Assembly: GCF_003334405.1 (NCBI RefSeq)
Contig: NZ_QOWM01000004.1
Length of the DNA: 64,000 bases
Source of the DNA: Escherichia coli
GTDB taxonomy: Bacteria > Pseudomonadota > Gammaproteobacteria > Enterobacterales > Enterobacteriaceae
Strand: one strand, 5' to 3'
Shown: in pieces, positions 14,282 to 55,253 of the stretch
Numbering within the stretch: position 1 is the first letter of the stretch
Layout: each line of letters starts with the position of its first letter
Notes under the pieces: model-generated
What the model saw: only the letters and a program-made list of their open reading frames with translations
Told to the model about the DNA's origin: nothing
Databases searched by the model: none
Position numbers and translations under genes: made by a program

Positions 14282-14414
14282 TTTTTGCGCCTCGTTATCA
14301 TCCAAAATACGCCATGAATATCTCCAACGAGATAACACGGTTAAATCCTTCACCGGGGGATCTGCTCAATATTAACTCTACCGATATCTTCGGCTTATGC
14401 CGAGCACCCCTGGC
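14282..14414 (-). promoter_or_regulatory. ompA long 5' leader region (approximate), known target of small-RNA regulation
   Basis: Placement is inference from the long non-coding stretch upstream of the ompA start plus established knowledge of the ompA leader; boundaries not verifiable here. Confidence 0.4.
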
Positions 14415-14637
14415 GATGTAAAGTCTACAACGTAGTTGAAAACTTACAAGTGTGAACTCCGTCAGGCATATGAAAAAAAAGTCTTGTATAAGGTATGTTT
14501 AATCTTTTTTGTCAGCGACAATTTACAGAAGAGAATCGCGGAAACCGCTTCAGACAAGCCTCCGCAAGGAAAATTAGTCACGACTGAAAGCATTGGCTGG
14601 GCGACAAAAAAAGTTCCAGGATTAATCCTAAATTTAC

Positions 14638-15147
14638 TTAATGATACAAATTAGAGTGAATTTTTAGCCCGGAAAGTTGTCTCGTGGCGTGAGAGGATGC
14701 GCTTACCGGACGCATAATAAACCCCATAGCGTTACCTTCATTTGCCGCATCAACAAGTTCAGCATGCTCTTCTTCAGTCAAATCATCTGCCAACCAACCG
14801 ATCACCACACTGTAATTGCCCGTGCGTAAAGCGCGAACCATTGACTCCACAGTGTGGCAAGGGGAGAGCTGGCTAATCTGCATTACTTTCGTTAAGGGTA
14901 GCCCAGATGCCTGAACCCATTCCCGACTCAGTTTTTGTTGCGGTGTTAACCAGAGTTGCCAGCGCGATTGCTGACCGAGTTGCTGTAACAATGGCAACAG
15001 TAGAAGTTGCGTCATCATGGGCTGATCTTCGCGATAGACAACTTCACTGATAAGCCCGGCTGTAGTGTTTTCCGTAGAGACACGCGCAATTTTACTTGCT
15101 GCGGATGAGAACGACGAAGAACGATGTGCATAGCCTGAAGTGTACAT
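14638..15147 (-). CDS. sulA: SOS cell-division inhibitor SulA
   Basis: ORF 14638..15153 trimmed to [13 protein letters not shown] (169 aa). Confidence 0.93.
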
Positions 15148-15169
15148 AATCAATCCAGCCCCTGTGAGT

Positions 15170-15189
15170 TACTGTATGGATGTACAGTA
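15170..15189 (-). promoter_or_regulatory. LexA operator (SOS box) of sulA
   Basis: Exact 20-bp palindrome TACTGTATGGATGTACAGTA (CTGT-N8-ACAG) just upstream of the sulA start. Confidence 0.9.
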
Positions 15190-15365
15190 CATCCAGTGAC
15201 AACAAAGATCAACCCTATTTTCGGAAAGAGCCTCGCAAATTTTGTCGTTGGTGACGGGAAAACATAAATTAATCTTGCCCCTTAAGAATAAGTTGCCTAT
15301 TTTCGTAGTTAACGGATCCGTTAATGTGAATCATTCTTTTATGTTATGATTTTAAAAGGAATTTT

Positions 15366-15995
15366 ATGAAAAGCCTCTCCTATAAGCGGATCTATAAATC
15401 ACAAGAATACCTGGCAACGTTGGGCACAATTGAATACCGATCATTGTTTGGCAGTTACAGCCTGACCGTTGACGACACGGTGTTTGCGATGGTTTCTGAT
15501 GGTGAGTTGTATCTTCGGGCTTGTGAGCAAAGTGCACAGTACTGTGTAAAACATCCGCCTGTCTGGCTGACATATAAAAAGTGTGGCCGATCCGTTACCC
15601 TCAATTACTATCGGGTTGATGAAAGTCTATGGCGAAATCAACTGAAGCTGGTGCGTCTGTCGAAATATTCTCTCGATGCAGCGCTGAAAGAGAAAAGCAC
15701 GCGCAATACCCGGGAAAGACTGAAAGATTTGCCCAATATGTCTTTTCATCTGGAAGCGATTCTCGGGGAGGTGGGGATTAAGGATGTACGGGCGTTACGT
15801 ATACTTGGGGCAAAAATGTGTTGGTTGCGACTGCGGCAGCAAAACAGTCTGGTGACAGAAAAGATTCTGTTTATGCTTGAAGGTGCCATTATCGGCATTC
15901 ATGAAGCTGCGCTCCCGGTGGCACGCCGCCAGGAGCTTGCAGAATGGGCTGACTCTCTTACGCCGAAACAGGAGTTTCCTGCGGAACTTGAGTAA
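15366..15995 (+). CDS. sxy: Competence regulator Sxy (TfoX)
   Basis: 209-aa ORF MKSLSYKRIYKSQEYLATLG... Confidence 0.92.
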   Translation: MKSLSYKRIYKSQEYLATLGTIEYRSLFGSYSLTVDDTVFAMVSDGELYLRACEQSAQYCVKHPPVWLTYKKCGRSVTLNYYRVDESLWRNQLKLVRLSKYSLDAALKEKSTRNTRERLKDLPNMSFHLEAILGEVGIKDVRALRILGAKMCWLRLRQQNSLVTEKILFMLEGAIIGIHEAALPVARRQELAEWADSLTPKQEFPAELE

Positions 15996-18111
15996 TCTGG
16001 CGTTGCAGACGACCAATCTCAGGCAGTAATGCAATCAATAATCCAACTTGTTGTACGACCAGAGGTTCTTTGCTGTCTGCCCGTGGTTCAAGTTGCTGCA
16101 TCCGCTGTTTCAGGCTAGCTAATGCCTCATTGACGCGTTCTTCATCAGCAGGTTGATGATGTAACGCGTCATCAACATAGCAAACTGCGTCATCAAGAAA
16201 CGCCAGAATTTCAGGATTAGTTAACTGCTCCCGGTGAGCACCGAGGGCTGAGATATAGCTGGTAAACGTATGGTTAAGGCACAGCAACCGAAACGCGGCT
16301 TCGCGAATTTGCGGGGTAACGTTCGGCTCGCTGGACATATTTGATACCACCGACGCCAGCTCAGCATCACGGTTGTGTGCATCGCGGCGGGCAATACGAT
16401 ACGCCAGACGGTTATCACGCCCCTGATGGTATTGCTCCAGTATGGCATCGAGATACCGACAGTTGGCCTCTGTGGCGCGTTCGAGCATGCGCGGCAGATT
16501 GCGAAACTGCCAGTCAGGCCAGATGTAGCTCACTGCCGCCCACGCAATGGCACAACCAATCAGCGTATCGATTACGCGAGGTAACGCTACTTCAAAACCT
16601 TCACCCAGTAAGTTAAAACACAGTAGCACCAAAAGTGTGATGAACATCGTTGCATGAGCGTATTGCACGTTACGGAAGGCAAAAAAGAGCACGCCGGTAA
16701 TAACCAGCAGCACCAGCTGCCCTTCCAGTGATGGCACAAACCACAGCACAGGAATGCCAATGGCGATACCTACCAGCGTACCAATAATCCTTAACTTCAG
16801 GCGGTGGCGCGTGGCGTTATAGTTTGGCTGGCAGACAAACAAACTTGTCAGCAAGATCCAATACCCGTGATGCATTCCGGTTATCTGAATGATGGCGTAG
16901 CCGAAGCACAACACCAGCGACATTCTTACCGCATGACGGAAGAGGGCGGATTCCGGCGTGAAGTGACGGCTAAGACGCAGCCAGATATCACTCAACCCGT
17001 GCGGGCTGTCATCAGCGAGCTCATTTTCGTCATTATTATGGGGTAGTGCCTGGGCCTGTTCTGATTCAATTGTTGCCAGTTGGGCATCAATGGCGCGTAA
17101 ATTGTTCAGCAAAAATCCCAGTGTTTTGAGTAAATCGGCGGGTGCGCCGTTATCGCGCATCCGCTCCAGCGCAGCATCAATATGCGTAAAAGCGCGCTCA
17201 AAATGCGGATCATGTTGATAAGGCTGACGCAACAAAATACAGCGTGACAGTTGCTGGCACGCCTGGCCCTGCATCGACATCAGCCGCTGAAAACGGAACA
17301 GCACGTCGCTGTGGCGAAAATGTTCACGCAATGTTTGATACTGAATATGAGAAGAGCTGGCACGCTCGTGAATATCCTGTGCGACAAAGTAATAATGCAG
17401 CGTGCGACGCGTTCCCCGTTGACCACGATCGCCACGTAAGCGGGTCAGCAGCGAGAGTTTCGTCTGATTCAATGTCGCCATCAGCAGACCGTTGGCGAGA
17501 GCCAAATCGTACAGCGGTGCCTGGCTTTGATCTTCAATATCAGGATCAAACATGCGCGACTTGAGCTCAAGATAACGCGCCAGTTGTTCATAGCAACGCG
17601 CCAGGTTGTCCTGCAGCGGGCGGACCGGGAACAGCAGATGACCAATAAGTGTCAGGACGTTGTACCAGACGGCACCGGCCAGCAGATACATCGGCTGCTG
17701 ATACCAGTGCTCATACAGTGATGTTCCCAACATAGTGTAAATGGCGATCAGCAATGCACCGAAGGCAATTGTTGCATAGCGTTGACCCAGACCGCCGAGC
17801 AAAATGAAGCCGCTGGTAGAGAGCGTTAAGCCAATCGCAAATAGCCAGGGCCAGGGAAACAGCAATTCTACTGAGGCCGAGGCGATAAAAAAGCAGAACA
17901 GCGTAATGATGAGGTTACGCAAACGTCCCGCCAGTCGGTCATCGAGATCGGTCAGCGCCGCTGCCACCATCCCCAGCGTTAGCGGAATCGTCAGTTTTAC
18001 ATCACCCAGCCACCACGGAAACGCTGTGGTTCCACAAAGCGCAATAAAAATACGCGCGTAATACAGCCAGGCGCTGTTCCAGGTATAGCGTTTGAGCAAA
18101 GGACTTAGCAT
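15958..18111 (-). CDS. yccS: Inner-membrane protein YccS (FUSC-like putative efflux protein)
   Basis: ORF 15958..18120 (720 aa); start placed at MLSPLLKRYTW to give the 717 aa I recall, but the 18120 start is possible; multiple hydrophobic segments in both halves. Confidence 0.85.
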   Translation of the reverse strand: MLSPLLKRYTWNSAWLYYARIFIALCGTTAFPWWLGDVKLTIPLTLGMVAAALTDLDDRLAGRLRNLIITLFCFFIASASVELLFPWPWLFAIGLTLSTSGFILLGGLGQRYATIAFGALLIAIYTMLGTSLYEHWYQQPMYLLAGAVWYNVLTLIGHLLFPVRPLQDNLARCYEQLARYLELKSRMFDPDIEDQSQAPLYDLALANGLLMATLNQTKLSLLTRLRGDRGQRGTRRTLHYYFVAQDIHERASSSHIQYQTLREHFRHSDVLFRFQRLMSMQGQACQQLSRCILLRQPYQHDPHFERAFTHIDAALERMRDNGAPADLLKTLGFLLNNLRAIDAQLATIESEQAQALPHNNDENELADDSPHGLSDIWLRLSRHFTPESALFRHAVRMSLVLCFGYAIIQITGMHHGYWILLTSLFVCQPNYNATRHRLKLRIIGTLVGIAIGIPVLWFVPSLEGQLVLLVITGVLFFAFRNVQYAHATMFITLLVLLCFNLLGEGFEVALPRVIDTLIGCAIAWAAVSYIWPDWQFRNLPRMLERATEANCRYLDAILEQYHQGRDNRLAYRIARRDAHNRDAELASVVSNMSSEPNVTPQIREAAFRLLCLNHTFTSYISALGAHREQLTNPEILAFLDDAVCYVDDALHHQPADEERVNEALASLKQRMQQLEPRADSKEPLVVQQVGLLIALLPEIGRLQRQITQVPQETPVSA

Positions 18112-52707: not shown

Positions 52708-55253
52708 TGAACAATAACGATCTCTTTCAGGCATCACGTCGGCGTTTTCTGGCACAACTCGGCGGCTTAACCGTCGCCGGGATGCTGGGGCCGTCATTGT
52801 TAACGCCGCGACGTGCGACTGCGGCGCAAGCGGCGACTGACGCTGTCATCTCGAAAGAGGGCATTCTTACCGGGTCGCACTGGGGGGCTATCCGCGCGAC
52901 GGTGAAGGATGGTCGCTTTGTGGCGGCAAAACCGTTCGAACTGGATAAATATCCGTCGAAAATGATTGCCGGATTGCCGGATCACGTACACAACGCGGCG
53001 CGTATTCGTTATCCGATGGTACGCGTGGACTGGCTGCGTAAGCGCCATCTCAGCGATACCTCCCAGCGCGGTGATAACCGTTTTGTGCGCGTGAGCTGGG
53101 ATGAAGCCCTCGACATGTTCTATGAAGAACTGGAACGCGTGCAGAAAACTCACGGGCCGAGTGCCTTGCTGACCGCCAGTGGTTGGCAATCGACGGGGAT
53201 GTTCCATAACGCTTCGGGGATGCTGGCGAAAGCTATTGCCTTGCATGGTAATAGCGTTGGTACGGGCGGAGATTACTCTACCGGTGCTGCGCAGGTGATC
53301 CTGCCGCGCGTAGTCGGTTCGATGGAAGTGTATGAACAGCAAACCTCCTGGCCGCTGGTATTGCAGAACAGCAAAACCATTGTGCTGTGGGGCTCCGATT
53401 TGCTGAAAAACCAGCAAGCGAACTGGTGGTGCCCGGATCACGATGTTTATGAATATTACGCGCAGCTAAAAGCGAAAGTCGCCGCCGGTGAAATTGAGGT
53501 CATCAGCATCGATCCGGTTGTCACATCCACCCATGAGTATCTGGGGCGCGAGCATGTGAAGCACATTGCGGTTAACCCGCAAACTGACGTGCCGCTGCAA
53601 CTGGCGCTGGCACATACGCTGTACAGTGAAAACCTGTACGACAAAAACTTCCTTGCTAACTACTGTGTGGGTTTTGAGCAGTTCCTGCCGTATCTGCTGG
53701 GTGAGAAAGACGGTCAGCCGAAAGATGCCGCATGGGCTGAAAAACTGACCGGCATTGATGCCGAAACCATTCGTGGGCTGGCGCGGCAGATGGCGGCGAA
53801 CAGAACGCAAATTATTGCTGGCTGGTGCGTGCAGCGTATGCAGCACGGTGAACAGTGGGCGTGGATGATTGTGGTTCTGGCGGCGATGCTGGGGCAAATT
53901 GGCCTGCCAGGTGGTGGTTTTGGTTTTGGCTGGCACTACAACGGCGCAGGCACGCCGGGGCGTAAAGGCGTTATTCTGAGTGGTTTCTCCGGCTCTACGT
54001 CGATTCCGCCTGTTCACGACAACAGTGACTACAAAGGCTACAGCAGCACTATTCCGATTGCCCGTTTTATCGATGCGATCCTCGAACCGGGGAAAGTGAT
54101 CAACTGGAACGGTAAATCGGTAAAACTGCCGCCGCTGAAAATGTGTATTTTTGCCGGAACTAACCCATTCCATCGCCATCAGCAGATCAACCGCATTATT
54201 GAAGGCTTGCGCAAGCTGGAAACGGTTATCGCCATAGATAACCAGTGGACCTCAACCTGCCGCTTTGCCGATATCGTACTGCCTGCGACCACGCAGTTTG
54301 AGCGTAACGATCTCGACCAGTACGGCAATCACTCCAACCGTGGCATTATCGCCATGAAACAGGTGGTGCCGCCGCAGTTCGAGGCGCGCAACGACTTCGA
54401 TATTTTCCGCGAGCTGTGCCGTCGCTTTAATCGCGAAGAAGCCTTTACCGAAGGGCTGGACGAAATGGGCTGGCTGAAACGCATCTGGCAGGAAGGTGTA
54501 CAGCAAGGCAAAGGACGCGGCGTTCATCTGCCAGCGTTTGATGACTTCTGGAATAACAAAGAGTACGTCGAGTTTGACCATCCGCAGATGTTTGTTCGCC
54601 ACCAGGCATTCCGCGAAGATCCGGATCTCGAACCGCTGGGCACGCCGAGTGGCCTGATTGAGATCTACTCGAAAACTATCGCCGATATGAACTACGACGA
54701 TTGTCAGGGGCATCCGATGTGGTTTGAGAAAATCGAACGCTCCCACGGTGGGCCTGGCTCGCAAAAGTATCCGTTGCATCTGCAATCTGTGCATCCGGAT
54801 TTCCGACTTCACTCGCAGTTATGTGAGTCGGAAACGCTGCGTCAGCAATATACGGTAGCGGGTAAAGAGCCAGTATTCATTAACCCGCAGGATGCCAGCG
54901 CGCGCGGTATTCGTAACGGTGATGTGGTACGCGTCTTTAACGCTCGCGGTCAGGTGTTGGCAGGGGCAGTGGTTTCTGACCGCTATGCACCCGGCGTGGC
55001 ACGAATTCACGAAGGGGCATGGTACGATCCAGATAAAGGCGGCGAGCCTGGTGCGCTGTGCAAATACGGTAACCCCAACGTGTTGACCATCGACATCGGT
55101 ACATCGCAGCTGGCGCAGGCGACCAGTGCGCACACTACGCTGGTGGAAATTGAGAAGTACAACGGAACAGTGGAGCAGGTGACGGCGTTTAACGGCCCCG
55201 TGGAGATGGTGGCGCAGTGCGAATATGTTCCCGCGTCGCAGGTGAAATCATGA
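52707..55253 (+). CDS. torA: TMAO reductase TorA (molybdoenzyme)
   Basis: 848-aa ORF with Tat signal [11 protein letters not shown]. Confidence 0.96.

Follow-up and report, generated by a model that had tools for sequence, protein, structure and literature searches.

The sulA and sxy (tfoX) genes of Escherichia coli lie next to each other within the 64-kb stretch of DNA analysed here (the window) and are read divergently from either side of a 218-bp intergenic spacer (Table 1). This arrangement had been proposed in a sequence-only reading of the window, and both its coordinates and its gene names agree with the RefSeq annotation of K-12. Gene calls and the K-12 annotation place ompA to the left of sulA, while yccS, which is convergent with sxy, lies to the right. 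SulA was matched over its full length by the NCBIfam equivalog model NF007892 (275.1 bits; curated cut-off 162), which assigns it to the SulA family. The Sxy protein possesses the domains TfoX_N (PF04993, E = 2.7e-25) and TfoX_C (PF04994, E = 6.7e-27) that define it as a member of the TfoX/Sxy family; no NCBIfam model matched it.

A sequence comparison of positions 14400 to 16200 with E. coli K-12 MG1655 revealed 100% identity. The transcription start site (TSS) maps published for K-12 are consequently valid for the window, and their positions were converted by subtracting 1,004,995 from the NC_000913.2 coordinate. The sulA–sxy locus was found in all of the complete E. coli genomes searched (5426/5426). 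An Rfam scan of the spacer gave no match at the gathering score, the sole match there being to a snoRNA at chance level (E = 0.58). The sulA–sxy spacer is a well-known and ordinary region of K-12, and the feature described here is already known.

Table 1. Features of the sulA–sxy locus. Positions are those of the window; identity is the mean majority identity among 14 enterobacterial taxa.
Feature	Position	Strand	Identity	Description and evidence
sulA CDS	14638–15147	−		SOS-induced cell division inhibitor, 169 aa; ORF list, NCBIfam, RefSeq annotation of the identical K-12 sequence
Intergenic spacer, whole	15148–15365		0.81	218 bp
sulA 5' UTR	15148–15177	−		30 nt, TSS 15177; Kim et al. 2012, Table S1
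LexA operator (SOS box) TACTGTATGGATGTACAGTA	15170–15189	.	0.95	−12 to +8 of PsulA, −141 to −122 of Psxy; CTGT and ACAG invariant in 14 taxa, Escherichia to Yokenella
PsulA −10, TACTGT	15184–15189	−		Within the LexA box; hexamer ends 6 nt upstream of mapped TSS 15177
sulA promoter spacer			0.69	
PsulA −35, TTGATC	15207–15212	−	1.00	Contains GATC; placed by position relative to mapped TSS; invariant in 14/14 taxa
CRP-S site, 22-mer	15219–15240	+		Core CGGAA-AGAGCC-TCGCA 15222–15237, centre 15229.5
CRP-S half-sites			1.00 and 0.97	
CRP-S N6 centre			0.67	
Linker, CRP-S to sxy −35			0.66	
Psxy core promoter	15275–15303	+		−35 and −10 hexamers with 17-bp spacer
Psxy −35, TTGCCC	15275–15280	+	0.90	
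Psxy −10, TATTTT	15298–15303	+	0.96	
Perfect 16-bp palindrome TTAACGGATCCGTTAA	15309–15324	.		−2 to +14 of Psxy; GATC at centre
Conserved 14-bp core TAACGGATCCGTTA	15310–15323	.	0.95	−1 to +13 of Psxy
sxy 5' UTR	15311–15365	+		55 nt, main TSS A15311; Kim 2012, Cappable-seq
sxy (tfoX) CDS	15366–15995	+		CRP co-activator at CRP-S sites, 209 aa; ORF, Pfam, RefSeq annotation

Conservation of the spacer was assessed using sxy loci fetched from 20 genomes, together with 5 added genomes. At every locus for which the upstream gene was checked (18 genomes plus the 5 added), the order was sulA on the minus strand, a spacer of 216 to 218 bp and sxy on the plus strand. Gene calls for the 5 added genomes also placed yccS, on the minus strand, beyond sxy, and the same gene order is found in Klebsiella (Kim 2012, Table S5). 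The mapped elements are distinct conserved blocks, with mean majority identities of 0.90 to 1.00, that stand between variable linkers (0.65–0.69).

The LexA operator and the sulA promoter

The 20-mer TACTGTATGGATGTACAGTA has one exact match in the window, at the sulA operator, with none expected by chance. When the window was searched with the γ-proteobacterial LexA consensus TACTG(TA)5CAGTA, comprising the arms of CTGT-N8-ACAG and their TA flanks, this box was the only match carrying three or fewer mismatches, and no such match arose in 100 shuffles. It agrees with the consensus at 17 of 20 positions. The arms, TACTGT and ACAGTA, are each perfect, and the three mismatches are all central. The box had been called perfect from the sequence alone; this description holds for the arms, but not for the three off-consensus central bases, nor is one half the exact mirror image of the other.

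The bare core CTGT-N8-ACAG occurred twice in the window against 0.87 expected, which is not significant alone. The second occurrence, CTGTTCACGACAACAG (54010–54025), resides within an ORF of 848 aa; it has no TA flanks and can be accounted for by chance. At 15178 to 15194 the K-12 sequence also forms a palindrome of 17 bp, GGATGTAC-A-GTACATCC, which runs into the right half of the LexA box. This palindrome is not retained beyond E. coli and so probably results from the symmetry of the box itself.

The start site of sulA was mapped by Kim et al. (2012, Table S1) to 1020172 on the minus strand, which gives a UTR of 30 nt; the sequence listed upstream of it is ...TTGATCTTTGTTGTCACTGGATGTACTGTACATCCA. 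The −35 and −10 hexamers of the sulA promoter (PsulA) are separated by 17 bp. A simple promoter scan missed both PsulA and the sxy promoter (Psxy), each of which falls below its threshold of 9 of 12 consensus positions. Because neither promoter was called, the hexamer assignments given in Table 1 rest on the mapped start sites together with conservation.

The LexA box ends 22 bp from the ATG of sulA, leaving 176 bp to the ATG of sxy, the 55-nt sxy leader included. These distances match the earlier estimate of a box close to the sulA start with approximately 170 bp left for sxy. The identification of the box as the textbook control element of sulA was likewise borne out by its placement across the −10 element and start site of the mapped promoter. 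In K-12, LexA binds and represses sulA, a classical tightly repressed SOS gene that is derepressed after DNA damage. With the operator spanning −12 to +8, a classical geometry for occlusion, repression would be achieved by steric occlusion of PsulA, and RecA-stimulated cleavage of LexA would then free the promoter.

Compared with the E. coli K-12 sulA (sfiA) promoter, in which the box overlaps the −10 element and the start site, the window is identical in sequence and shows no differences. Other Escherichia lineages carry variants of the box that are altered in the central bases, for example TACTGTATGAATATACAGTA, while the window has the K-12 form.

The sxy promoter and the CRP-S site

Two independent genome-wide datasets of 5'-triphosphate ends were available for sxy. 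Kim (2012) reported a start at 1020306 on the plus strand with a 55-nt UTR and 124 reads. In the Cappable-seq data the same position has a score of 58.6, and a weak start is present at 1020352 (window 15357; score 3.4); no plus-strand start is listed between 14726 and 15311. The −10 hexamer of Psxy lies 7 nt upstream of the mapped start at 15311, and the pair of hexamers with their 17-bp spacing (TTGCCC-17-TATTTT) was predicted in a SELEX study of the RpoD holoenzyme (PMC3946193). A Shine-Dalgarno sequence, AAGGA, precedes the sxy reading frame at 15356 to 15360. We also noted a conserved block, TATGATTT, within 15345 to 15357 that, with the preceding TG found in K-12, resembles an extended −10 element. 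This block is situated 7 nt upstream of the weak Cappable-seq start, which would give a leader of 9 nt.

The half-sites of the CRP-S site (a Sxy-dependent CRP site), 6 bp apart, match those reported for Psxy by Søndberg et al. 2019 (PMC6728893), namely TGCGA (promoter-proximal) and TTCCG (distal). In that study, for which the Psxy reporters were built on K-12 sequence identical to the window, activation of Psxy needed Sxy, cAMP-CRP and the activating region 1 (AR1) of CRP, at Class-I-like distances. The centre of the site, computed from public TSS data, is at −81.5 of Psxy and at −52.5 of PsulA, and the former position fits the Class-I-like description. Binding of cAMP-CRP and Sxy to this asymmetric site would activate Psxy in a Class-I-like manner, and sxy would be subject to positive autoregulation.

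The sxy promoter was reportedly first mapped by Jaskólska and Gerdes. Comparison with the E. coli sxy promoter as described (Jaskólska & Gerdes 2015; Søndberg et al. 2019) revealed the same half-sites, the same 6-bp gap and the same Class-I-like position, with no sequence difference.

A natural disruption of the CRP-S site was observed in E. coli NH-21 (NZ_CP148034.1), where a 768-bp IS1 element (1134–1901 of the fetched locus) has inserted in its centre. The element is accompanied by an 8-bp target duplication, AAAGAGCC, corresponding to window positions 15225 to 15232, and its flanking sequence otherwise shows no difference from the window. As a result of the insertion, the distal half-site and PsulA are parted from the proximal half-site and Psxy.

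A conflicting start has been described for sxy. Sinha & Redfield 2012 stated (data not shown) that transcription begins at a G residue 115 bp upstream of the ATG, which corresponds to window position 15251. Were Psxy to start functionally at about this position, the transcript would possess a long structured leader and the core promoter would lie over the CRP-S site and abut the sulA −35 element, such that interference with the LexA/sulA promoter complex would become plausible. However, neither Kim 2012 nor Cappable-seq contains a TSS at 15251, and the stretch from 15241 to 15271 is the least conserved of the spacer (0.66). Furthermore, the CRP-S centre would then be at −21.5, a position incompatible with AR1-dependent Class-I-like activation, and a 150-nt leader folds no better than its shuffles (z = 0.02). 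We therefore regard a functional start near 15251 as very unlikely, and the start at 15311 is used throughout.

Position of the LexA operator relative to the sxy promoter

The start sites of PsulA and Psxy are 134 bp apart and the promoters stand back to back. Between them the elements follow one another without overlap: the LexA box, the 17-bp promoter spacer, the sulA −35 element, 6 bp, the CRP-S site, 34 bp and the sxy −35 element. The LexA box is separated from the CRP-S 22-mer by 29 bp, from the sxy −35 element by 86 bp and from the sxy TSS by 122 bp. No further site with three or fewer mismatches to the LexA consensus exists in the spacer. A member of the LexA regulon would be expected to carry a box that overlaps or abuts its promoter elements; the sole box here occupies −141 to −122 of Psxy.

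The sequence-only reading had raised the possibility that LexA occupancy could interact with elements of the sxy promoter. Beyond adjacency we found no support for this suggestion, and the sxy promoter mapping that it had called for, taken from the published TSS data, places the sxy elements well away from the LexA box. LexA works by local steric occlusion and is not known to act at a distance. The proposal that LexA, bound at its box, directly represses or stimulates Psxy through the short shared spacer draws on the presence of box and promoter within the same 218 bp and on the short distance, 29 bp, from the box to where the CRP-S 22-mer begins. It is opposed by the location of the box at −141 to −122 of the mapped sxy start, by the sulA −35 element standing between box and CRP-S site, and by the literature searched, which links neither LexA nor SOS to sxy expression. 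That literature yielded neither a report that expression of sxy in E. coli depends on LexA or SOS nor an experiment measuring it in lexA mutants. In one meta-analysis, sulA and sxy both appear as multi-stress-responsive genes, with no mechanism given. A direct action of this kind thus appears highly improbable.

We further compared the locus with divergent pairs that share a regulator site, such as malT–malP or other divergent operons having a single shared CRP site. The sulA–sxy pair likewise has a short spacer with an activator site between the two −35 elements. Unlike those pairs, however, it has no known shared regulator, LexA serving sulA only, and the spacing of its CRP-S site is productive for sxy alone (−81.5 versus −52.5 for sulA). 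Taken as a whole, the spacer very probably contains two back-to-back σ70 promoters that are separately regulated, PsulA by LexA and Psxy by CRP–Sxy. Direct control of sxy by LexA is unlikely, and we infer that LexA exerts no direct effect on Psxy.

LexA might instead reach sxy by way of read-through, whereby a plus-strand transcript antisense to sulA runs on into sxy, with LexA acting as a roadblock that is lifted by SOS. Cappable-seq lists a fairly strong plus-strand start at 14432 (score 39.1) and weaker ones between 14530 and 14726, a simple terminator scan found no intrinsic terminators in 14600 to 16100, and an antisense RNA that fully overlaps sulA has been described (PMC4161252). In the same publication, however, the antisense unit and sxy are two distinct transcription units, and nothing points to LexA blocking an elongating polymerase at this site. 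Read-through of this kind is, in our estimation, extremely improbable, and separate regulation of the two promoters remains the preferred reading.

The Cappable-seq plus-strand starts antisense to sulA lie at 14432, 14530, 14691, 14705 and 14726. The strongest, at 14432, is divergent from ompA, whose start (14414) lies 18 bp away, and fits the known sulA antisense RNA. The start at 14726 follows 14689 to 14718, the sole promoter-like match returned by the simple promoter scan.

Proximity of the CRP-S site to the sulA promoter

The only geometric link between the two promoters is the CRP-S centre (15229.5), situated 52.5 bp upstream of the sulA TSS. The α C-terminal domains (αCTDs) of a polymerase bound at PsulA, a strong promoter, would occupy the zone that holds this centre. 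It is conceivable, then, that once PsulA is derepressed, αCTDs of polymerase at the LexA-freed promoter would contact the region from −42 to −63, which coincides with the CRP-S site, and compete there with CRP–Sxy. In variants of the same idea, CRP–Sxy would alter the firing of sulA, or divergent transcription would shift supercoiling at Psxy. A conserved T-tract beside the sulA −35 element (15216–15220) may be consistent with such contacts, in that it resembles a proximal UP-element subsite whilst also flanking the CRP-S site, and the spacer length is constant at 216 to 218 bp across genera. This constancy may, however, simply reflect a spacer that is full of essential elements. Furthermore, strain NH-21 is evidently viable with an IS1 element between the two promoters, and −52.5 is, from general knowledge of CRP spacing, an unproductive position for activation by CRP. 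We consider polymerase coupling of the promoters improbable.

The palindrome at the sxy start site and the sxy leader

A perfect palindrome of 16 bp, TTAACGGATCCGTTAA, spans the sxy start site. Its 14-bp core, TAACGGATCCGTTA, is invariant at 10 of 14 positions and has the same mean majority identity as the LexA box (0.95). In 7 of the 14 taxa, Salmonella, Leclercia and Yokenella among them, the core is perfectly palindromic, and the GATC at its centre (15315–15318) is kept in all but one of the compared genomes. Elsewhere in the 64-kb window, sites resembling TAACGGATCCGTTA were near-matches at chance level only. The most likely reading of this pattern of conservation is that TAACGGATCCGTTA is a candidate operator for a so far unnamed factor. 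The second Dam GATC of the spacer (15207–15210) was seen to reside inside the invariant sulA −35 element. In the one methylome paper searched, sulA and sxy are both unmentioned.

RNA structure was considered as the reason for the palindrome and leader and was rejected: a 90-nt leader gave z = −1.37, the 150-nt leader gave the near-zero value reported above (z = 0.02), and no covariation was detected. Two candidate structures, a long-range helix of 9 bp (GGAUCCGUU/AGCGGAUCU) and a 5' hairpin of 4 bp, similarly showed no covariation and were no better than shuffles. The apparent pairing is accounted for by the retention of GGATC on both sides, the downstream copy being kept because it encodes Arg-Ile.

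Two further candidates in this region were discarded. In K-12, the stop codon of a 7-codon upstream ORF, ATGATTTTAAAAGGAATTTTATGA (15347–15370), overlaps the ATG of sxy. This ORF is disrupted by indels in Citrobacter and absent in Lelliottia, and is probably non-functional. The sulA/sxy region was also recovered by genomic SELEX with the TetR-type regulator RcdA (YbjK); one table of that paper assigns the site to the spacer, whereas other parts assign it to the sulA ORF. RcdA was rejected as a regulator of the spacer since its footprint is described as falling within the sulA ORF and an rcdA mutant has unaltered sulA mRNA; no TTGTNNACA box was found in or near the spacer.

Discussion

The sequence-only reading correctly recognised a textbook K-12 locus, a result that is, as found, of little import. 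The mapped promoter positions argue against the interaction between LexA and sxy that it had proposed.

Two controls that would be undescribed may nevertheless be considered together. TAACGGATCCGTTA, whose conservation among enterobacterial genera equals that of the LexA box and the CRP-S half-sites, could be a putative repressor operator, possibly sensitive to Dam methylation, that silences sxy in the laboratory; or polymerase at PsulA could contend with CRP–Sxy at the CRP-S site, from its position at −52.5. That at least one of these is real seems to us possible, if doubtful. If true, competition by the PsulA polymerase at the CRP-S site would provide an indirect link from SOS to competence.

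No natural condition that induces sxy, and hence competence, is known in E. coli (PMC3330819). Three features of the spacer bear on the induction of sxy: the conserved palindrome at its start site, the CRP-S site lying within reach of PsulA, and the interruption of that site by a naturally occurring IS1.
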